44,592 nt of DNA from Escherichia phage BEK1-1. The notes under the pieces are model-generated. The model was not told the DNA's origin and ran no database searches. It saw only the letters and a program-made list of their open reading frames with translations. This document shows, in pieces, positions 3,223-40,738 of the stretch. The position numbers and the translations under genes were made by a program. Position 1 is the first letter of the stretch; the number at the start of each line of letters is the position of its first letter. Where the stretch lies: sequence record MN158212.1; one strand, written 5' to 3'.

Positions 3223-3870
3223 ATGAACATTGAAGTGTGCAAAGAACAATCAAAAACCATGATGAGCACAAAGGAAATCGCAGAGTTAACCGGCAAACGT
3301 CATGATCACGTCGTTCGCGACACAAAGGAAATGATCAATGAATTGTTACATTATAACGATGCCCCAGATTTGGGTCATGATGATTATCAACTACTTACAG
3401 ACAATCGAGGCTATACATCTGAGATTTTACTCAACAAGGAACTAACCGAAACGCTAATCACTGGCTACAGTGTCGTACTTCGCCACAAAGTAATCCGCAG
3501 GCTTCATGAACTTGAGGCTTTAGTTAAAAAACAAGCGGAAGTAATCAGCCAGATGGTAAGCATTGATGAGCTTAAAGAGGTTCGAATGATGCTTGGTGTG
3601 GCTAATGCGCAGAATGCACACCTGAGCCAGCGCATTGTTGCAGAGCAAAGAATAAATGAGATCTTACTCATGGATAAGAGTACCGATGAAAAACTAGACA
3701 TGCTGGCTTGTGAGGCTCGCCAGTGTTGGGTTAGTCGATCTGATGAGATGGAGGAAAGATTTAAGTATGAAGCCCAATGCTTCGCCCTTAAAGAAAAGAA
3801 TGATGCGCTGACCGGATTGATTGAGAATAATCTCGGCATTGACATCAAGCTGCTGCTGGAAAAGAAATAG
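3223..3870 (+). CDS. Rha-family phage regulatory protein (antirepressor-like)
   Basis: N-terminal ...STKEIAELTGKRHDHVVRDTKEM... resembles the Rha signature; C-terminal half coiled-coil-like; RBS GGAGAG. Confidence 0.5.
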   Translation: MNIEVCKEQSKTMMSTKEIAELTGKRHDHVVRDTKEMINELLHYNDAPDLGHDDYQLLTDNRGYTSEILLNKELTETLITGYSVVLRHKVIRRLHELEALVKKQAEVISQMVSIDELKEVRMMLGVANAQNAHLSQRIVAEQRINEILLMDKSTDEKLDMLACEARQCWVSRSDEMEERFKYEAQCFALKEKNDALTGLIENNLGIDIKLLLEKK

Positions 3871-20456: not shown

Positions 20457-21188
20457 CTATTGTGATTCCCAATCTGGAACCGACCAGCAACGACAGCCGT
20501 ATTCTTGGCCTGGAAATATATCGTTACCACCTAGTTTAAAGCTAAGGCCCTCTCTCGCTATATGCGATTGGCGCTCCCTATCATCCAGCATGCCATGCCA
20601 GATGTAACGGCTAACACCAGCATCCTCAAGTCTGCGTCTCATAAGTGTGGAATTCAGACTTGAAACAATCCCAGACGCGATGTTTGCCGTTCGCTTTCTG
20701 TATGTTTTGTACCTATCTGATAACTTAACGTAATCCCCATTCTGTATTGTTGCGGCCGTCTGCAAGAAATCATCTTTAATGTTATTCAGTAATTTAATCA
20801 CTGACTTATCCGTGGTGTAAATCCACTGATTAAGGTCATCATTATACCACGGCTCACCACCATTGATGCCGTTAACCTCAAGGTTCAGAACGCTAGGATT
20901 GGACCTTCCTCCGGTCTTTATTGCAAGCGCAAGAAATTGCGAGCTATTGTATCTGTATATCGCCGCCCCTATAGCCGGGATGGTTGATATAAATGACGCC
21001 ACCAATGCAGAAATTATCCCCTCAAGATATCCATCCTCCTCCCCTAGCTCCTCTGCAGTATCAATTCTAAGCCTTGTTGCTGACTCCTTCATTGCTGAAA
21101 TTAACTCAGTTACCGCAATGCTGAGATTGCGGTTAACCTGGCTCTCAATTGTCTGCGGATACTTCCAGCGGGTCGTTACTGGTTTCAC
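20457..21188 (-). CDS. minor head protein (Mu gpF / SPP1 gp7-like head morphogenesis)
   Basis: 243 aa; position immediately after portal; C-terminal ...WHGMLDDRERQSHIAREG...YGCRCW. Confidence 0.5.
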   Translation of the reverse strand: MKPVTTRWKYPQTIESQVNRNLSIAVTELISAMKESATRLRIDTAEELGEEDGYLEGIISALVASFISTIPAIGAAIYRYNSSQFLALAIKTGGRSNPSVLNLEVNGINGGEPWYNDDLNQWIYTTDKSVIKLLNNIKDDFLQTAATIQNGDYVKLSDRYKTYRKRTANIASGIVSSLNSTLMRRRLEDAGVSRYIWHGMLDDRERQSHIAREGLSFKLGGNDIFPGQEYGCRCWSVPDWESQ

Positions 21189-24564: not shown

Positions 24565-24590
24565 TTGAGGTCAGATTATACCATATTACA
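24565..24590 (-). promoter_or_regulatory. TATAAT -10 element upstream of the small-terminase gene
   Basis: Reverse complement reads ...GTAATATGGTATAATCTGACC... just downstream of a terminator. Confidence 0.35.
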
Positions 24591-24860: not shown

Positions 24861-24938
24861 TGGCGCTCCGCACTGGATTCGAACCAGTAACCTACGACTT
24901 AGAAGGTCGTTGCTACTATCCTATTGAGCTAGCAGAGC
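24861..24938 (-). tRNA. tRNA-Arg (anticodon UCU)
   Basis: Minus strand reads GCTCTGC...TAGCTCAATAGGATAG...ACGACCTTCTAAGTCGT...CTGGTTCGAATCCAG...GCGGAGC-G-CCA; acceptor stem pairs 7/7 (one G-U); anticodon loop CT-TCT-AA; T-loop GGTTCGAATCC. Confidence 0.85.
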
Positions 24939-26699: not shown

Positions 26700-26755
26700 C
26701 GATGGGGTAACTATAACAAATTACCCCAATACAGTTTTAGCAATTCGTGCTATTT
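26700..26755 (-). promoter_or_regulatory. box promoter (AAATAGCACGAATTGCTAAA, 20 nt, TATAGT, leader ACCCCATCGAAACGA)
   Basis: Direct reading of the reverse complement. Confidence 0.55.
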
Positions 26756-27681: not shown

Positions 27682-27873
27682 ATATCAATCCTCGTCACTG
27701 TGCCGCCATGCGTCTTAAGCATGAGGTTTGCGTATTTTTCGTCTACATAGTGCAGGAACATATCAATTCCCCTGCTGCTGAATTTATGTTCGTATATCGT
27801 CACTTAACTTACACTCGTGTGGTTGATGTGGGGATTATACCAGTCAGGATGAATCCCCTTTTAACAATTATTG

Positions 27874-28105: not shown

Positions 28106-28363
28106 TCATTGCCTCTCCGCCTCTTCCGCCGCAAGGATTAATGCCGCCGCCAGCTTGCGTGCTTGCTCAGGACTGTATTGCATAATCGTCTGACAATCTC
28201 CGCATTCATCCGGGTCGAAATCCAGACATACAACGGGACCTCGATCTCTTTTTGTAATGCTTATCTCAGCTTGGTCTAAGTAAAGATCTTCAATACGAAC
28301 AGCTTCCATATTCATTTCCTCTTTGTTTTCGATTGGGTAATCATAGCTAACTACCCGATCCAT
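28106..28363 (-). CDS. hypothetical acidic protein (85 aa)
   Basis: ORF with box promoter immediately upstream. Confidence 0.4.
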   Translation of the reverse strand: MDRVVSYDYPIENKEEMNMEAVRIEDLYLDQAEISITKRDRGPVVCLDFDPDECGDCQTIMQYSPEQARKLAAALILAAEEAERQ

Positions 28364-28385
28364 TGTTTAGCAATTCGTGCTATTC
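28340..28385 (-). promoter_or_regulatory. box promoter (AATAGCACGAATTGCTAAA, 20 nt, TATGAT, leader ACCCAATCGAAAACA)
   Basis: Direct reading; the box overlaps the TAG stop of the upstream gene. Confidence 0.55.
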
Positions 28386-28904
28386 GCCGATAATAAGCGA
28401 TTTAGCTTTCCGGTAGAAATCGACAGCCCTCTCCACCTCTTCCTCATTGTACCGCAAGTGGTATGGTAGTCTACTAGCGTGCTCACCTTCGTAAGTTTTG
28501 AAGTTAGGTTGCCAGTACTCATCAATGATAGCTGGGTGGACGTAAATCTTATCCCCAATGAGGAAAACTAGATTCATTTCCTCTAGATCAGGGATTAGTT
28601 CGTCCTTAATGCGAGCTATGATATCAAGGCATCCTACGAACGGCTTAATCTTTCGAGCCTCCTCGTGTACAGACTTGACACCCACCACTCCCCTTCCGTT
28701 TCTTGCCATCTTCCTGATCAGCTTAATCAGAACTCCCAGCGCTTCATCTCTGTAGACTTCCGATGCATCAGGCTGGCCCCATAGGTGCTGAACATGCCGA
28801 TAACCGTTAGCATTGATTGCAACCCGCAGTGGCGGTAGCCCATCCTGGATAGCAATATTCATAATCTGCTCGTCCGTCAGTTTCTCTTCATCGAAATTAA
28901 ACAT
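28380..28904 (-). CDS. hypothetical protein (174 aa), short paralogue of the 527-aa P-loop protein
   Basis: N-terminus MFNFDEEKLTDEQIMNIAIQDGLPPLRVAINANGYR and C-terminus ...NGRGVVGVKSVHEEARKIKPF...LIGDKIYVHP align with the ends of ORF 31388..32971. Confidence 0.5.
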   Translation of the reverse strand: MFNFDEEKLTDEQIMNIAIQDGLPPLRVAINANGYRHVQHLWGQPDASEVYRDEALGVLIKLIRKMARNGRGVVGVKSVHEEARKIKPFVGCLDIIARIKDELIPDLEEMNLVFLIGDKIYVHPAIIDEYWQPNFKTYEGEHASRLPYHLRYNEEEVERAVDFYRKAKSLIIGE

Positions 28905-29452: not shown

Positions 29453-29731
29453 GTTGATACCTCGTTTCGTTTACTTCGTTTCAGTGATTGCCATCTTGCC
29501 ACTTGTTTACGTGTCGGTCAACGTATTTTTATGTCTATTTCATCGCGGATACGTTTTTCGGCCTCCAAGTTAGCGTCAGCACTGGTTGTAAACGTGCCGT
29601 ATCCCCTGTGTACAGTTTTGTAGGGTACTTTCCTATATATGTGCCTTTTTATTCCTACAATGTCATCCCATTCTGACAAGTGTCAGAATATCTGCACGGA
29701 ACATATCAACTATTGCCTCCGTGAGCGGTAT

Positions 29732-29797
29732 ACACAGTATACATATATATAATAATAATAATAATAATAAAGTAAAAGGTTGATATATATAGATATT
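29732..29797. repeat. AT-rich element copy 2: ACACAGTA-(ATA)n-TAAAAGGTTGATATATATAGATATT
   Basis: Near-identical to 2928..2985, with a longer ATA run. Confidence 0.7.
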
Positions 29798-29983
29798 ATA
29801 TTGTATATCGTGTGTATATCTCGCGTAAAAACGTAGGTTAGTGGTCACTAACTTTTGTGACGACACTGAGTATACGGAGGATACGCGTATATCGATGAGA
29901 ACCTTACCGATTGGTAAAAAATCAACTTGTATGGTAGTCCATCCATCTTTCATTCACTCACTCACCACTTTATTTTACTTTTC

Positions 29984-30069
29984 GCAACAATCAAAGACAT
30001 CATTGCATCTGAAGCAATATTGCTGTATATGCAATAATCATGTGAATCATTGCAATATCTGCAACAATC
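29984..30069. repeat. iteron-like cluster (GCAACAATC x2, ATCATTGCA x2, palindrome GCAATATTGC)
   Basis: Direct reading of gcaacaatcaaagacatcattgcatctgaagcaatattgctgtatatgcaataatcatgtgaatcattgcaatatctgcaacaatcc. Confidence 0.5.
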
Positions 30070-30085
30070 CATAAATCTGACGAAT

Positions 30086-30129
30086 GGCACTTTTTGCTAA
30101 AGACACTGGAGGTCATGGAGGATATAGTT
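30086..30129 (+). promoter_or_regulatory. box promoter, half-box variant (CACTTTTTGCTAAA, about 20 nt, TATAGT, leader AACTCATCAAAACGAGG)
   Basis: Direct reading. Confidence 0.45.
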
Positions 30130-30154
30130 AACTCATCAAAACGAGGAGATAGAA

Positions 30155-30584: not shown

Positions 30585-30745
30585 TGCTGCTGCCATCTGA
30601 GATAAATTATTTCGATCTTGAAGTCATAAGCGCATACAGCTGGAAGGGTTGGCCTTGCGGGGACTGGTTTCGCGAAGACTTACTTGAGAGTCATGAAATT
30701 ATGCTCAAGGCCATAGAAAAAGCACGAAATAGCACTAATTGCTAA
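30584..30745 (+). CDS. hypothetical protein (53 aa)
   Basis: ATG overlaps the upstream stop (TGATG); 3' end AAT AGC ACT AAT TGC TAA coincides with the box. Confidence 0.35.
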   Translation: MLLPSEINYFDLEVISAYSWKGWPCGDWFREDLLESHEIMLKAIEKARNSTNC

Positions 30746-30772
30746 ACACTGATCGCAAGGATGCGGTATTAT
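30727..30772 (+). promoter_or_regulatory. box promoter (AAATAGCACTAATTGCTAAA, 20 nt, TATTAT)
   Basis: Box and spacer nearly identical to the cor promoter (CACTGATCGCAAGGATGCG). Confidence 0.5.
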
Positions 30773-30798
30773 CTTTACATCAAAACGGGAGATAAGAA

Positions 30799-30963
30799 AT
30801 GTTCGACAACTTTCATGACGCGATAGAAGAGGCATTGTACCGCGCGTCACTTGATGGGAAGATTTACGGTTTAGTTCAGAAGGTTGACAAGATTGTTGTG
30901 CGAATCGTGCGCAAATCAGTACCTAACAAATTCATGTGGACAACTAAGAGAGTAACAAAATGA
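30799..30963 (+). CDS. hypothetical protein (54 aa)
   Basis: GGGAG RBS; below the track cutoff. Confidence 0.35.
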   Translation: MFDNFHDAIEEALYRASLDGKIYGLVQKVDKIVVRIVRKSVPNKFMWTTKRVTK

Positions 30964-31313
30964 CCAATACGATTACCAAAAACTGGATCAGCAACGAAAA
31001 TGTACTCTATAAAGCTCGCGTTAAAGATGGAGTAGAGCAAATCAAGAAAGATGGAAAATGGATTAACCTTGAAGAGCGCGGCAAGTACATCAAGACAAAG
31101 ACAATTTACTGCACAAATGTTAATCATCGCTCATCCATTCGTAAATACTTCACTGAAGGGAAGAGGTATCAAGTAGATCTCCATGCTGGACTTGGTCAGT
31201 TCGCTGGATACATTTACGATAAAGAGGGCAGCGCATGGCAGGTATATCGTGACGAAGATGTTGGCTTTGTTACAGTTTGCGGCGACTACCGCTTTGAGGC
31301 TCAATACCGATAA
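30960..31313 (+). CDS. hypothetical protein (117 aa)
   Basis: ATGA overlap with the upstream gene. Confidence 0.4.
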   Translation: MTNTITKNWISNENVLYKARVKDGVEQIKKDGKWINLEERGKYIKTKTIYCTNVNHRSSIRKYFTEGKRYQVDLHAGLGQFAGYIYDKEGSAWQVYRDEDVGFVTVCGDYRFEAQYR

Positions 31314-31387
31314 TAAGCACAAATTGACAATGAATTATAAGCGGCCGTTGATATAATGGCCGCTCAGAAACAATACGGAGACAAGTA

Positions 31388-32971
31388 ATGTTCGATTTCA
31401 ACGAAGATAAACTATCTGTTGAACAGGTTATGGCAATTGCTGCCGCAGAAAACCTCCCGCCCCTGCGCGTCGCCATTAATGCTAATGGCTATCGCCAGTC
31501 CCAGTCATTCTGGAAAGCACCAGTCGAGATTGATGCAGCTAATGACAAGTATCCAGTAATCTCACTAGGTAATGACATTGATGTTGTTGGTAAGCTGTCA
31601 GCTAATATTGCCCGATCTGTTCAGTTCCCTGAGTCGTCAGCTTACATGCACTTCCTGGGGTGTATTTCCGCTGCAATGCTGGGTCGATTTACTGTTGAGT
31701 ATCACGGAACGCAGCAACCGACTTCGCTTTACGTCGTAACAAGCCAGCCACCATCCACTGGTAAATCAGCCATTAACTCGCTATCGATTGCTCCAATGAT
31801 TGCTGAGACTCAGCGACTAAATGAAGTTAGAAAGCGTGAGCGCAAGAAAATTATGGCAAAACTATCTGCATTATCGAAAGAGATGAAACAGGAAAAATCT
31901 CCGTCAGAGATGGCCTCTCTTTTTGAGGAGAAGGAGGAGTTGGAGGAAAAACTCGAGAAACTATGCGATATCGTTTTCCCAGTATCAGATACCACACCAG
32001 AAGGTCTGGCCCGAATCAACAACCGCCAGGGCAACTTTGCTGTAATCTCTGATGAGGCAACGAGTGTAAACTCACTACTTGGCATGACCTATGGTGACGG
32101 CTCAAAGAAAACGAACAGCGAACTGGTACTGAAGGCATGGGATGCTGGTAACGTATCTATCGCTCGCGCTAACGCTGAAAACAACATGAGTTTTGTTGCT
32201 ATGGGTTGCATCTCTGTAATTGCGCAGGATGAGACAATCAACGCTATCATGAACGCTGGCGCGCGTGGTATCGGTGTATCTGAGCGTTTCCTGCTTGTAC
32301 GTGAAAAGTCATTCCTTGGCGAGCGTGTATTCGTTGATGAAAATGGCGAATCGACTTATGAACCAATTGATGCCGGGTTGAAGGCTGATTACTTCCGTTT
32401 AGTTCACGAAATCATGAATGAGCAAGATGTAAAGTTGACGGTGAGCAACTCAGCGATGAAATATCTCAACCGTGCACGTCAGGAAATGGAGCCTCATCTT
32501 GCTGACGGCGGTAAGTATTCCCACACAATGTTGCGCGGCGCGCTGGGTAAGTTCGATAAACAGGCTATAAGGATTGCAGCCGTTCTTCACACAGTTCGCA
32601 ACTGGTTCAACCCTAACGGTGGGAGTCCACAGAAGTCCAGAGAAATCGAGCTCGACACCATGCAAGAGGCTGTGATTATGTTCCAGGAACTGAGTAAGAC
32701 TTATTTGTCATCTGCCAACGCTGCGGGTCACGCTGGCGACAATGCAGAGATGAATAAGCTGATTGATATCCTGATTAAGCAAGGCAAAAACGGGAAAGGA
32801 GTAGTAGGTATTCGTTCGCTATATGAAGCGGCTCGCAAGGTTAAGCCATTCGAGGCTCAGGCTGGAGTGATGACGAAGATTAAAGATCACCTGCTGCCAA
32901 TGCTTGATGAGAAAAACTATACGTGCCTGATTGGTGATAAGGTTTACATTAATCCGCGACTTCTGGGGTGA
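31388..32971 (+). CDS. P-loop NTPase-like protein (527 aa), long paralogue of ORF 28380..28904
   Basis: Walker-A-like ...TSQPPSTGKSAI..., Walker-B-like ...FAVISDEAT... about 100 aa later; N- and C-terminal about 45 and 65 aa match the 174-aa protein. Confidence 0.5.
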   Translation: MFDFNEDKLSVEQVMAIAAAENLPPLRVAINANGYRQSQSFWKAPVEIDAANDKYPVISLGNDIDVVGKLSANIARSVQFPESSAYMHFLGCISAAMLGRFTVEYHGTQQPTSLYVVTSQPPSTGKSAINSLSIAPMIAETQRLNEVRKRERKKIMAKLSALSKEMKQEKSPSEMASLFEEKEELEEKLEKLCDIVFPVSDTTPEGLARINNRQGNFAVISDEATSVNSLLGMTYGDGSKKTNSELVLKAWDAGNVSIARANAENNMSFVAMGCISVIAQDETINAIMNAGARGIGVSERFLLVREKSFLGERVFVDENGESTYEPIDAGLKADYFRLVHEIMNEQDVKLTVSNSAMKYLNRARQEMEPHLADGGKYSHTMLRGALGKFDKQAIRIAAVLHTVRNWFNPNGGSPQKSREIELDTMQEAVIMFQELSKTYLSSANAAGHAGDNAEMNKLIDILIKQGKNGKGVVGIRSLYEAARKVKPFEAQAGVMTKIKDHLLPMLDEKNYTCLIGDKVYINPRLLG

Positions 32972-33315: not shown

Positions 33316-33338
33316 TAGCCTCCATTAGGAGGCTTTTT
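33316..33338. terminator. bidirectional intrinsic terminator between convergent genes
   Basis: AGCCTCC-ATTA-GGAGGCT followed by TTTTTTACG; A/T run on the other strand. Confidence 0.7.
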
Positions 33339-35265: not shown

Positions 35266-35293
35266 TTCAATCTCCTCTCGTTTCTATAAAACA

Positions 35294-35339
35294 ATAATAG
35301 CCGCTTTCGCGGCTACTGTTTTAACAAAAGGTGCTATTA
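35294..35339 (-). promoter_or_regulatory. box promoter, variant, with hairpin TAGCCGC-GAAA-GCGGCTA inside the 20-nt spacer
   Basis: Direct reading; the hairpin may also terminate transcripts from the upstream phosphoesterase gene. Confidence 0.4.
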
Positions 35340-37420: not shown

Positions 37421-37662
37421 TATTCTGATACCTCATCAAATTTTTCGCCAAATGCGTTTTTAACAGTTTCCAGGTCATCTTTGTAAGTCGGGCTAACTTC
37501 GAAAGCATAACCCTCACCATCGTCAAGAACATAGCCATCAGGGGTGATTACCAATTCATACTCATAACCAGTTTTGCGTGATTCGTAGAATTTTCCAGTG
37601 TAGATAGTAGCCATTTTGTTTCTCTCTCTGTGTTTCGTTTCGATGGAGTAACTATACCCCAA
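37420..37662 (-). CDS. hypothetical protein (80 aa)
   Basis: ORF with box promoter upstream. Confidence 0.4.
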   Translation of the reverse strand: MGYSYSIETKHRERNKMATIYTGKFYESRKTGYEYELVITPDGYVLDDGEGYAFEVSPTYKDDLETVKNAFGEKFDEVSE

Positions 37663-37696
37663 TCTTTAAAATCGTCTTTAGCAATTCGTGCTATTT
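37651..37696 (-). promoter_or_regulatory. box promoter (AAATAGCACGAATTGCTAAA, 20 nt, TATAGT, leader ACTCCATCGAAACGAAA)
   Basis: Direct reading of the reverse complement. Confidence 0.55.
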
Positions 37697-38110: not shown

Positions 38111-40101
38111 AACAATTCTCCAAAATTCTTAAAAGCTATTATATCATTTCCTTTGCCATTCTTGCGGTGTGTCACCTGGACTGGCGCACGAAACTTATCT
38201 GCGTTAGTCATAATCATTCTGGCATTCTTCAGTCTGCCAATTCGTGCTGCTTCAGCTCGATTTTCAATGTGAGCAAGGCAAAAGTTTTTCCAAAGCACAC
38301 TACAAACCCTGTGGTCAGATTCTGGATTGAAGAACTCCCAAGCATTAAACCGCTCTCCGTTGTGCGCCATGATATTGTACTTAACAACAATTCCCGTTTG
38401 GTTCTTACTTAAGCCAACCTGAAAATCATAAACACGAAGGTAATCACCACGTCGATACATTTTTCCAGTAAGATTGGCATTCGGGTCTTTAAGCATTTCT
38501 CCGCATTCACGACAAACTTTTGCTGCTATGTCATTTTTAGTTCCACAACCTTTCTTGATTACCGCCTTTGTTTGTTGGTCGGTAATATCATCACATGTCG
38601 TGAACTGGAAAAAGTGATCGCATCTAACACCATCAATCTTATTGCTACAGCGTCTAGCAAATGGCGAGTTCTCATATCCACATTTCGGACACTGGCGAAC
38701 CTCATCACCACCTTTTCTTGAGGATTTAAACTTCTCAGCCTGAATCTCCTCAATTATTGGGTCAAAGTAAAGCTCTGCCATGTCATCAAGCGCCCCGGCA
38801 AAGTCTAATACCAAGTGGTCCTCCTTCTTGAACCCAGCATCTATGTGCGCCTTTTTTAGTTTTCGCATGCCACGACCAAGAAGCTGAATCATTAAGGTTA
38901 TACTGCCAATCTTGCGTAGTATGACGCTAGTATCCCACAGTGGTTGGTTTACGCCCGTGGTTAGACATCCAATCTGAAAGATAATCTTGTACTTTCCAGT
39001 CTGGCAATCAGCAAGAATCTCCCTGCGCTTCTTCTCCCCCGTAGAATCAGTAATGATAGCGTAAGGGTATCCATCTGGGAGTGCCTCGGCGGCTTCATCA
39101 CAATGTAGTTTGCCAGCGCATGTTACCAATGCGGCATTGCGAGTCTCAAGTATTTTTACAACAAAACCCATTATCTTTTGAGTCATGGATTGGTTGTCGT
39201 GAATCTTTGCAGCCATTGCGTCCATTTCTTTCTTGCTGAAATCCTTCACGCCATCGCTTCCGTCTGGCGCAAACTCACTAAGGTCATAACCAAGGTCACC
39301 AACCTCGCCGTAAACAGTTGGTACCACGAATCCCAAATCAACAAGGTAATTTGTTGGAACCTGAATCACAGTTTTTCGCCAGAACCCACGGATGTTTGGA
39401 TTGCTAACGACGATATGGTCATTATTTCGATAAGGGCTACCAGTAAGGCCGAATATACGAAGCTCCCGCCCGTATTTTTCACGGCAGCGACGCTTCATCT
39501 CAGTGATTATTAACGTGTACTGCGCGCGACCAGTGCCAAGCAACCCTGTGTTTACGCCATCCTTAAAAACCATCTCGCCTTTCTTTGTGCTCATCTGCTC
39601 AAATGTTTCTTCATTCTCTTCGGCTTCCACGATATCCATGTGATCGACCATGTGGCATTCATCTATAGCTATAACGGCAGGAACATAGTCACCAAGCCCC
39701 TTAAACAAGCCGTTAGCTGCCGTGCCCTCACTAGCAACTATGGTTGGGTAGTAAACTGATTTAACGTTAAGTCCGGCGCAATAGACGCTGTTGCGGATGC
39801 CGAAATTACGAAGTTCTTCTGAGTTCTGGCTTATTATCTCTGACTGGCGAGAAAGAACCATGTAAGGCAACCCTAATTGCTCCATTCGCTTTCCAATCAT
39901 GGCGAGAATGATTGTCTTACCAGCAGATACTGAAAGGTCTGCGATAAATGGGGCCTCGTACTTCCCAATAGCCTTTCCGATAGCATCAAATGTAACGCAC
40001 TGGAACTCGTAAGGAGTTATCTCTCCAAACTGATAATCTTTCTGAATCTGTTTAATTCTTTCTTTATCAAAGTTTGCAACCTGCTTCTCGATAGGCAACA
40101 T
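38107..40101 (-). CDS. DExH-box (SF2) helicase with C-terminal Cys-rich zinc-ribbon region
   Basis: Motif I-like ...SVSAGKTIIL..., motif II ...IDECHMV...; C-terminal ...CPKCGYEN...C...C... cluster. Confidence 0.7.
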   Translation of the reverse strand: MLPIEKQVANFDKERIKQIQKDYQFGEITPYEFQCVTFDAIGKAIGKYEAPFIADLSVSAGKTIILAMIGKRMEQLGLPYMVLSRQSEIISQNSEELRNFGIRNSVYCAGLNVKSVYYPTIVASEGTAANGLFKGLGDYVPAVIAIDECHMVDHMDIVEAEENEETFEQMSTKKGEMVFKDGVNTGLLGTGRAQYTLIITEMKRRCREKYGRELRIFGLTGSPYRNNDHIVVSNPNIRGFWRKTVIQVPTNYLVDLGFVVPTVYGEVGDLGYDLSEFAPDGSDGVKDFSKKEMDAMAAKIHDNQSMTQKIMGFVVKILETRNAALVTCAGKLHCDEAAEALPDGYPYAIITDSTGEKKRREILADCQTGKYKIIFQIGCLTTGVNQPLWDTSVILRKIGSITLMIQLLGRGMRKLKKAHIDAGFKKEDHLVLDFAGALDDMAELYFDPIIEEIQAEKFKSSRKGGDEVRQCPKCGYENSPFARRCSNKIDGVRCDHFFQFTTCDDITDQQTKAVIKKGCGTKNDIAAKVCRECGEMLKDPNANLTGKMYRRGDYLRVYDFQVGLSKNQTGIVVKYNIMAHNGERFNAWEFFNPESDHRVCSVLWKNFCLAHIENRAEAARIGRLKNARMIMTNADKFRAPVQVTHRKNGKGNDIIAFKNFGELL

Positions 40102-40202: not shown

Positions 40203-40688
40203 ATGAATGCAGTCGACAAGCGAACCATTAACGGTAATAACGGAACCATCCGCACTGAAGACAAAAAGCAACGGAAACGACCTTCAGGTTACTACGTTTT
40301 GAAAGATGAGGTAAGGGCGGGTTTACGTGCGCGGCTGGAAATTGTTCTTGATTTCTTCGGCACAAAGGCAAATATGGCAAAGCAATTAAAGGTAACACCA
40401 CAGGCTGTAGAGGAATGGTTTAAGCGCGGCATGATTTCTGCGCGCGGGGCTCAACTCTCACACAACTACTACAAGCGAACCGGGGAAGGCTTTCGCGCCA
40501 CATTCTGCCGACCAGATCTGCAATTCGACGGCAACGGCAAGCCTCTTACTCTACGTTGCAAAAAGCGTCACATGCTGCGTGTTGTTACTGAGGCTGAATT
40601 AGCCACCAAGCCAGAGTGTCGATCATGGCGCAAGATTAAGGAAGAGAATCGCAAAAAGCGAGAAGCAGAGAAAAATAGCACGAATTGA
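40203..40688 (+). CDS. putative HTH DNA-binding regulator (161 aa)
   Basis: ...FGTKANMAKQLKVTPQAVEEWFKRGMIS... resembles a Cro/CI-type helix-turn-helix; basic N- and C-termini. Confidence 0.45.
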   Translation: MNAVDKRTINGNNGTIRTEDKKQRKRPSGYYVLKDEVRAGLRARLEIVLDFFGTKANMAKQLKVTPQAVEEWFKRGMISARGAQLSHNYYKRTGEGFRATFCRPDLQFDGNGKPLTLRCKKRHMLRVVTEAELATKPECRSWRKIKEENRKKREAEKNSTN

Positions 40689-40725
40689 TAAACAATGGCG
40701 CTATGCATTGTGTATAGTGCCTTTA
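40673..40725 (+). promoter_or_regulatory. box promoter (AAATAGCACGAATTGATAAA, 20 nt, TATAGT) upstream of the second HNH gene
   Basis: The box overlaps the last codons (NSTN-stop) of the HTH gene. Confidence 0.5.
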
Positions 40726-40738
40726 TTGTTTATGGAGG

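Follow-up and report, generated by a model that had tools for sequence, protein, structure and literature searches.

A probable repeat-type promoter for the DUF3987 gene of Escherichia phage BEK1-1, nested in a conserved sense-strand hairpin

Escherichia phage BEK1-1 is a T1-like siphovirus (Drexlerviridae, Braunvirinae, Veterinaerplatzvirus; 96–99% identity to the vB_EcoS-12397 group), and the stretch analysed here, called the window below, comprises 44,592 nucleotides of sequence record MN158212.1. Just ahead of its gene for a P-loop protein with a DUF3987 domain, the window holds a TATAAT hexamer flanked by a GC-rich inverted repeat. We find that this flagged site adds a degenerate copy to a family of repeats already known from T1-like phages. 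According to the reading that we favour, with a probability of about 0.6, it serves the DUF3987 gene as a repeat-type promoter and is embedded in an RNA hairpin whose action would be confined to transcripts reading through from upstream.

An earlier note on this DNA had described the site as an overlong −35/−10 pair, with TTGACA at 31324–31329, a 22-nt gap (31330–31351) and TATAAT at 31352–31357. Rereading the window bore out these coordinates, and also the view that the spacing is too long for a standard sigma70 promoter: a consensus scan with 16–18 bp spacers calls no promoter at the site, and the hexamer 16 bp upstream of the −10, ATGAAT, agrees with the canonical −35 at 3 of 6 positions. 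The identity of TTGACA as a displaced −35 had to be given up. It is instead the right half of the T1-family direct repeat, a palindrome of the form TAGCA-N5-TGCTA. In phage TLS, a 21-nt version of this direct repeat, aaATAGCACnnnTTGnTAAAA, designated DR1–DR18, occurs in 21 copies oriented with transcription (PMC11447400, Phage 2024). The repeat lies ~76 nt upstream of start codons and is found in T1, Rtp and Rogue1 as well; a stoperator, an enhancer-binding site and an UP-like element have been floated as its role, none of them settled, and the TLS re-annotation lists only three sigma70-like promoters (PMC11447400). The window copy resembles the TLS repeat in motif, in orientation to the downstream gene and in start-codon distance, as it begins at 31315, on the same strand as the ATG at 31388 and 73 nt ahead of it. 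Unlike the published repeat it is degenerate (AAGCAC...TTGACA), with A for T at the first base and TGACA for TGCTA. Its score by position weight matrix (PWM) is the lowest of the 16 copies in the window, yet at 19.0, compared with a maximum of 6.8 in 20 shuffles, the match is significant. At orthologous sites, Rtp and other relatives read TAGCACAAATTGATA, and in both Rtp and TLS the repeat that precedes the DUF3987 gene is canonical.

The repeat is accompanied by a −10-like hexamer in fixed phase. All 16 copies in the window (PWM scores 19–68, shuffles ≤6.8) align as aAATAGCACnAATTGcTAAA-N20-TATaaT-tancccAtcgaAacgaa, and each leads on to a Shine-Dalgarno sequence and then a start codon; comparison with the table of open reading frames (ORFs) showed every copy to be co-oriented with its downstream gene. 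The pattern TAGCAY-N4-TK...TAnnnT has 17 matches in the window against 1.8 expected. When the 110 nt ahead of this gene, encoding the DUF3987 protein, were compared in 35 relatives, a conserved TAGCAC followed by TAnnnT 31 nt later was present in all comparable groups. Beyond this gene, an IMG/VR pattern scan (120 loci) and the loci collected before it together yielded 256 unique sites, for which the repeat was the sole criterion of selection. For the present analysis we defined the expected hexamer as TAnnnT at offset 37 from the first base of TAGCAC; it stands there in 46% of the 256 sites (63% with CATAAT-type hexamers), compared with 1–2% at other offsets. The flagged TATAAT has exactly this offset (31352 = 31315 + 37). 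The right repeat half is always 22 nt from the −10 hexamer, at ~16 sites in this genome and at hundreds in relatives. Most repeat sites in the window and in relatives have no hairpin enclosing the −10, and window copies 1259−, 3108+ and 15108− keep the 22-nt spacing without any hairpin. This spacing is therefore the norm of the class, and no structure that corrects the geometry is needed.

The surrounding positions point in the same direction. The start profile of the family, seven nt past the hexamer, has C at −1 in 121 and A at +1 in 127 of 155 sites, and 37% of family sites carry TG at −15/−14. Matches to TTGACA average 1.5/6 at 17-bp and 2.3/6 at 18-bp spacing, compared with 4.1/6 for the repeat half at 22 nt. 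Judged by sequence, this profile is typical of sigma70 promoters that have a −10 or extended −10 and no −35. The flagged site has a canonical −10 in perfect extended form (TGATATAAT), with TG at 31349–31350 ahead of TATAAT; the start region reads C31363/T31364 and then CAGAAACAAT, which resembles, without being identical to, the CA start and AUCGAAACGA-like leader of the family. Promoter activity at the site is inferred.

The palindrome TAGCA-N5-TGCTA is perfect, and its centre lies 30 nt upstream of the hexamer start, at about −42. Class II activators, CRP and FNR among them, sit at this distance, a comparison that concerns geometry only, and the flagged site likewise has a dimer-type palindrome near −41.5. 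Class II sigma70 promoters (CRP or FNR at −41.5, lambda cII at pRE, T4 MotA/AsiA middle promoters) share with the repeat module a −35 that is overlapped or replaced, a poor canonical −35 and a good, often TG-extended −10. The likeness is purely geometric, and the motif is unrelated to the CRP, FNR, cII and MotA boxes. The obvious candidate for the putative binder is encoded by a 161-aa ORF at 40203–40688 (+), which matches phrog_2856 'transcriptional regulator' (E 1e-83), has a weak Cro/YdaS-type helix-turn-helix (HTH) at aa 48–80 and is the sole recognisable transcription regulator in the window. It was the only one of ten small neighbouring ORFs in which a Pfam scan for DNA-binding domains had a hit, the weak Cro-like HTH. 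Two divergent repeat promoters, 40189− and 40676+, flank the ORF, whose TGA stop falls inside the 40676 repeat.

The two halves of the repeat differ in how they vary. Across the window and loci L001–L155, the left half is TAGCA in 91 of 103 sites and never TAACA, and the right half is TGCTA in 74, TGTTA in 42 and TGATA in 8 of 135 sites. If the repeat were to fold as RNA (UAGCA/UGYUA), the C-to-T change in the right half would keep a G·U pair; asymmetric contacts of a protein or of the polymerase could explain the asymmetry equally well. Instead of activating, the repeat might be repressive, or it might act at the RNA level, its right half varying between C and T in a G·U-compatible manner.

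The second element of the site is the hairpin. The inverted repeat GCGGCC (31341–31346)/GGCCGC (31358–31363) is where the earlier note had placed it, and its 6-bp stem is real. The perfect Watson–Crick stem comprises 7 bp, AGCGGCC (31340–31346) and GGCCGCT (31358–31364), with an 11-nt loop and G–C at 6 of 7 pairs. In RNA, additional pairing of GUUG with UAAU, including two G·U pairs, lengthens the stem to 11 pairs closed by an AUA triloop (ViennaRNA). The description of TATAAT as lying in the hairpin loop is accordingly accurate for the 6-bp arms, between which the hexamer stands, and inaccurate for the extended fold, which draws part of it into the stem. The motif GCGGCC-N5-20-GGCCGC occurs once in the window, compared with 0.01 expected. 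Folded alone as RNA, the 42-nt core with the hairpin reaches −16.9 kcal/mol and is more stable than 99.9% of 8100 same-length background windows of this genome; the centroid structure of a 101-nt RNA fold, which consists mostly of the 31340–31364 hairpin, has −19.8 kcal/mol. As DNA, the site folds into a 10-bp stem of −10.4 kcal/mol (z = −5.1; none of 200 shuffles equally stable). A covariance-model scan of the whole window with Rfam 15 gave nothing at the site, its only match being the tRNA at 24864–24938.

At this junction the hairpin is under selection for pairing. Among alignable relatives, 96.5% of stem cells are paired, compared with at most 56% in slid controls. Three stem pairs change on both sides: one goes from C-G to A-U in 2725-N35, and the two top pairs occur as C-G/U·G/U-A and C-G/U-A. 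At one stem position, the window has C-G, most relatives have U·G and locus L009 has U-A. The covariation score is 0.224, compared with 0.089 in shuffles, and 3 of 500 shuffles reach 0.224. In more distant lineages, too, the hexamer is covered by a hairpin, whose stem has an entirely different sequence: GGTGCG/CGCACC in PH1062, GTTGCCG/CGGCAAC in TLS, GATGCCG/CGGCATC in L055 and GGTTCCGG/CCGGAACC in L023.

Hairpins are moreover a feature of the whole promoter class. Despite lower GC content, the 16 window cores have a mean of −9.7 kcal/mol compared with −5.6 kcal/mol in the background (p = 7e-4), and 7 of the 16 fall in the most stable 4% of the background. Across the family, a hairpin with at least 5 Watson–Crick pairs, at least 3 of them G–C, is present in 137 of 216 cores (63%), compared with 14% of composition-matched shuffles. 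It encloses or overlaps the −10 in window copies 26752−, 28382−, 27876−, 37693− and 40676+ and lies in the spacer at 3868+, 30730+, 35336− and 34782−. Several of these copies, all on the minus strand, have arms made of G-runs and C-runs around the −10: TGGGGTAA...TTACCCCA at 26703–26728, GGGGAT...ATCCCC at 27835–27860, GGGTA...TACCC at 28340–28365 and TGGGG...CTCCA at 37651–37676. In such promoters the C-rich discriminator (tacCCC) pairs with the G-run in the spacer, the same architecture as at the flagged site.

Two properties connect these hairpins with the sense transcript. First, in 100 unique stems, transition mismatches comprise 61 G·T and 9 A·C, whereas the shuffle null, built on A/C-rich sequences, has 29% G·T (p about 1e-23); when pairs touching the hexamer are left out, the counts are 29 and 7 (p = 3e-10). 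Folding is also stronger in the sense strand, with a mean minimum free energy of −10.9 compared with −9.5 kcal/mol for the antisense strand (p = 5e-7). As a sense G·T is a G·U pair in sense RNA and an A·C mismatch on the other strand, this bias argues against a cruciform or a protein operator and for a structure in the sense transcript. Second, hairpin strength tracks the presence of an upstream co-directional gene. Cores that follow a co-directional ORF average −12.4 kcal/mol, with 72% at or below −10, whereas those with no ORF ending there average −7.1 kcal/mol, with 31% (p = 8e-5). The window copies 3108+ and 40189−, apparently the first in their units, have no hairpin, and copy 15108− has a separate canonical terminator just upstream.

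On this basis we propose the following module. A 15-bp palindromic repeat, TAGCA-N5-TGCTA (here AAGCA-N5-TGACA), would occupy about −49 to −35 and is most likely bound by a dimeric factor in a class-II-activator-like position, with phrog_2856 as the candidate. It is followed by 22 unconstrained bases and a putative sigma70-type, often extended, −10 hexamer, which host RNA polymerase most likely uses, and the module would end with a 6-nt discriminator, a CA start and an A-rich leader, the ATG standing about 73–76 nt downstream of the repeat. Selection has acted on the inverted repeat at the −10 as a sense-strand RNA stem-loop, with its arms accommodated in the two parts of the promoter that are free in sequence, the spacer and the discriminator. 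Because the predicted start at ~31364–31366 lies at the end of the 3′ arm, the promoter's own transcripts lack the 5′ arm and cannot fold the hairpin. Only RNA initiated at upstream promoters and continuing through the preceding gene for a 117-aa protein would fold it, so that the hairpin would mark the boundary of the upstream transcript; the repeat-type copy at 30730..30775 is a likely source of such read-through. Since a U-tract is missing, weak attenuation or pausing, protection of the 3′ end of the upstream mRNA, or both, are likelier than efficient termination. Alternatively, the hairpin may mask the AU-rich −10 sequence from RNase E. We thus infer, for the flagged site, a boundary-element role towards read-through transcripts. 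The analysis demonstrates that the site belongs to the repeat family, that the −10 has a fixed phase, that pairing is selected and that the mismatches are strand-biased; promoter activity, the activator and the precise role in RNA are proposals. Of the suggestion in the earlier note that the structure is an RNA attenuator at the end of the preceding gene, the RNA structure at that place is retained, and attenuation of the promoter's own transcript is impossible with the 5′ arm absent.

Several points weigh against this proposal. The flagged repeat is the weakest copy, and the promoter may be less dependent on the factor and more reliant on its perfect extended −10. The class of cores with no upstream ORF comprises only 16 members, a few of which are probably chance matches in unrelated contigs, and unique sequences from related phages are phylogenetically dependent, which makes the p-values optimistic. 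Core hairpins showed no association, and hence no sign of mutual exclusivity, with hairpins in the 50 nt preceding the repeat (Fisher p = 0.71), in a comparison too crude to be informative because these 50 nt are mostly coding. The tail after the flagged stem, CAGAAACA, has one U in 8, so that canonical termination is not to be expected. G·T pairs are also tolerated in single-stranded DNA, so that a hairpin in the non-template DNA strand is formally compatible with the wobble bias; the dependence of the hairpins on an upstream ORF speaks against it. Finally, the literature searched held no transcript-end or transcriptome data for Drexlerviridae, which makes promoter activity, start site and read-through predictions.

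The best-surviving alternative, which we consider possible and clearly second to the favoured reading, is that the hairpin is a leaky or non-canonical intrinsic terminator that stops a substantial share of upstream transcription, with the promoter restarting transcription for DUF3987, as at the 'transcripton' boundaries proposed for T1. It overlaps with the reading above and differs only in the extent of termination that it claims. The strong, GC-rich RNA stem would suit a terminator (7 Watson–Crick pairs, 11 with G·U, and a 3-nt loop), and two sister lineages have canonical, terminator-like hairpins at exactly the same junction, combining a TTCG tetraloop with a T-rich tail: they read CCCGCTTCGGCGGG followed by TATATTTAT and GCCCCTTCGGGGGC followed by ATTT. 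Hairpins with T-rich tails also stand in the window cores 35336−, 40676+ and 30730+. The TLS terminators T57 and T62 lie inside repeat-promoter cores, the loop of T57 containing the repeat-specified TATCAT, and T57 also having a T-tract. Whether a tail is present depends on where the hairpin ends. Hairpins ending at or before the hexamer have the T-rich −10 region as their tail (mean 3.6 T in 8), and some of them, at 35336−, 40676+ and TLS T57 and T62, are obvious terminators, whereas the 54 unique hairpins that run past the hexamer, as the flagged one does, average 1.4 T. Efficient intrinsic termination by the RNA polymerase of E. coli generally depends on a U-tract, and the poor tail of the flagged hairpin counts against the terminator accordingly. 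In line with this, a terminator consensus scan of the window did not report it.

Two other places in the window are of interest here in their own right. At 35291–35336 (−), TAGCCGC-GAAA-GCGGCTA followed by TTATTGTTTTAT forms a hairpin with a T-rich tail inside a repeat promoter, and at 40676–40730 (+), GGCGCTATGCA...TGTATAGTGCC is followed by TTTATTGTTTA, the −10 hexamer being part of the 3′ arm. By their sequence, both look like true overlaps of terminator and promoter.

Considerably less probable is a structure-gated promoter of the kind that the earlier note had put forward. A DNA hairpin, a cruciform or a non-template hairpin would correct the 22-bp distance or expose the −10 as single-stranded DNA, so that supercoiling or structure switches the DUF3987 gene. 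The DNA fold is indeed stable for its size, its loop centre at about −12 superficially resembles hairpin promoters such as those of N4 virion RNA polymerase and Frpo, similarly placed hairpins are found in many promoters of the class, and, taken alone, the strand bias would suit a non-template hairpin. A distance that is the norm even at hairpin-less copies needs no correction, and extrusion of a 25-nt hairpin would take out the −10 itself and not only 5 bp of spacer. Between lineages, the hairpin is displaced by 3–4 nt with respect to the −10, and at other copies it lies wholly in the spacer. A cruciform requires both strands to pair, whereas in most relatives a sense G·T faces A·C on the other strand, leaving the duplex palindrome imperfect, and antisense folds are weaker. 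A stem of 7 bp with an 11-nt loop is also a poor cruciform substrate. The dependence on the upstream gene is expected of an RNA element and not of one intrinsic to the promoter. What survives of the proposed control point for the P-loop gene is that the site is most probably the promoter of the DUF3987 gene; gating by a hairpin or cruciform does not agree with the strand-biased mismatches.

Two further explanations are very improbable. A palindromic operator, AGCGGCC-N11-GGCCGCT, bound by a dimeric repressor or other regulator over the −10 would have the classical layout of an inverted repeat straddling this element, and two-sided changes can also arise through co-evolution with a protein. The arm sequence is, however, unique in the window, with no other GCGGCC...GGCCGC dyad; paralogous promoters of the same genome each have different arms, orthologous junctions (PH1062-, TLS- and L023-type) have unrelated arms in shifted registers, the half-site centres are 18 bp apart and not on one face of the helix, and the one-sided changes are overwhelmingly compatible with sense-strand wobble, which a protein site would not require. 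Equally improbable is a functionless hairpin from chance complementarity of a GC-rich discriminator and spacer: GC-rich discriminators are common among promoters and the stem is not long, but chance alone would give 0.01 copies per window and explains neither the pairing kept through two-sided changes and complete stem replacement nor the class-wide enrichment. A terminator for the minus strand was also considered and rejected, since its tail is only moderately U-rich here and not U-rich in other lineages, and antisense folding is weaker.

Comparison with known systems places the site between several of them. Terminator-overlapping promoters, such as the 'transcriptons' proposed for T1 and TLS T57/T62, share a GC-rich stem-loop directly after a co-directional gene and interleaved with a promoter; the flagged hairpin differs from them in having no U-tract and in containing the −10 in its loop and 3′ arm. 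With intercistronic stabilising stem-loops (REP-type, blocking 3′ exonucleases), it shares a stable, sense-selected hairpin without a U-tract between co-transcribed genes. Hairpins left by T7 RNase III sites are of the same kind. The flagged stem of 11 pairs falls short of typical RNase III substrates, and an RNase III site was rejected for its length; nesting with a promoter, as here, is a feature of neither REP-type nor RNase III-site hairpins. The hairpin promoters of N4 virion RNA polymerase and the F plasmid Frpo share a promoter element associated with a DNA hairpin, but they need a dedicated polymerase or a single-stranded template, and in Frpo the hexamers are in the stem. Hairpins of the flagged class depend instead on the upstream ORF, which points to RNA. 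For TLS, and for this phage only, the re-annotation states that neither an RNA polymerase nor a sigma subunit is encoded (PMC11447400). MerR-type promoters (19–20 bp spacers) share an over-long apparent −35/−10 distance with a dyad in between, whereas the dyads in the window differ at every promoter and form no common operator, the apparent −35 is the repeat, and the distance is 22 bp rather than 19–20.

The elements of the flagged site and its flanking genes are listed in Table 1.

Table 1. Coordinates of the flagged site and of the features around it.
Feature	Position	Strand	Remarks
Nearest upstream repeat-type promoter copy	30730..30775	+	TAGCACTAATTGCTA...TATTAT; PWM 57.8; spacer hairpin ATCGCA/TGCGGT listed as terminator-like
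Upstream co-directional gene, conserved 117-aa protein	30960..31313	+	phrog_2684; stop 1 nt before the repeat
Degenerate repeat copy AAGCACAAATTGACA	31315..31329	+	consensus TAGCAC-nnn-TTGCTA; contains TTGACA; centre near −42 if the hexamer is −12 to −7
5′ hairpin arm	31340..31350	+	AGCGGCC (31340–31346) and GTTG (31347–31350; pairs with TAAT, two G·U); occupies the promoter spacer
Extended −10 TGATATAAT	31349..31357	+	hexamer start 37 nt after the first base of the repeat, as family-wide
3′ hairpin arm	31354..31364	+	TAAT (last four −10 bases) and GGCCGCT (discriminator, up to the predicted start)
Predicted transcription start region	31364..31366	+	from the family profile; here C31363/T31364, next A is 31366
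Shine-Dalgarno GGAG of the DUF3987 gene	31377..31380	+	not sequestered by the hairpin
Downstream gene, 527-aa P-loop protein	31388..32971	+	Pfam DUF3987, E 1.9e-41; phrog_2373 'DNA helicase', E 7e-259

In relatives, too, the DUF3987 P-loop protein carries the annotation 'DNA helicase'. The gene order upstream of it is not constant. In Veterinaerplatzvirus T145P1 (L002, 1660–2010), an insertion of ~350 bp with two small ORFs separates the repeat from the homologue of the 117-aa gene, and in phage ES (L007) a wholly different gene precedes the repeat. In both, the repeat, hairpin and −10 stay with the DUF3987 gene, which indicates that the module travels with the downstream gene. The stop codon of an upstream gene often coincides with the TAG of the repeat's TAGCAC, as at 28382, 34782 and 37693 (all on the minus strand), and the TGA inside the repeat at 40676+ occupies 40686–40688. 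Coding sequence and regulatory module thus abut or overlap with no spare bases.

Further features of the window deserve mention. A 174-aa ORF at 28380–28904 (−) joins the first ~45 aa of the 527-aa DUF3987 protein to its last ~90 aa and lacks the P-loop core. This ORF has a PHROG of its own (phrog_7327, E 1e-74), and the same short paralogue is also present in relatives L033–L035; as a truncated paralogue, it may mimic the terminal domains of the helicase. The tRNA gene at 24864–24938 lies on the minus strand (Rfam RF00005, 57 bits); a single arginyl-tRNA has been reported for T1-like phages of the window's group. The symmetric hairpin AGCCTCC-ATTA-GGAGGCT at 33317–33334, with T-runs on both strands, separates the 111-aa gene (+) from the convergent lysis cassette (−) and is likely a bidirectional terminator. 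Perfect extended −10 elements (TGnTATAAT) with no preceding repeat stand at 20841–20849, 24575–24583 and 38138–38146, all on the minus strand, and may be repeat-independent promoters. The AT-rich divergent region of ~700 bp at 29453–30154, which separates the leftward and rightward gene blocks, has no repeat copies and holds several ordinary sigma70-like matches, for example AAGACA-17-TATAGT at 30100–30128, a content that would fit early, factor-independent promoters.

The fixed-phase −10, the CA start and the embedded sense-strand hairpins go beyond what the TLS re-annotation reports (PMC11447400). In the literature searched, the combination of a fixed-phase −10, class-II-like geometry and nested sense hairpins confined to read-through RNA appears to be undescribed, and the part of the search devoted to promoters nested in terminators returned nothing specific. 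More tentatively, we suggest that Drexlerviridae could possess promoters of a dedicated class, where the repeat at about −42 is occupied by a phage factor and the −10 and start are deliberately nested in an RNA hairpin that only read-through transcripts can form. Such a hairpin, be it a terminator, a pause signal or a stabiliser, would be a 'self-immune' insulator that partitions a dense genome into transcription modules. In a more radical variant, the repeat (UAGCA/UGYUA, tolerant of G·U on the sense strand) and the second hairpin may together form a two-stem RNA signal for a phage protein involved in processing or antitermination.

In conclusion, the annotation of the site changes from an aberrant −35/−10 pair to a probable promoter of the repeat type, which has an extended −10 and serves the DUF3987 gene. 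If the nested arrangement is true, placing the start site inside the stem is a design rule by which a structure affects only read-through RNA, which would be of interest for transcriptional insulation and for the design of synthetic-biology parts. T1-like phages often contaminate laboratories and industrial plants and are candidates for phage therapy, and their transcription programme is essentially unmapped. For these phages, the fixed phase of repeat, −10 and CA start yields 16–20 predicted promoters per genome, along with a concrete candidate regulator.

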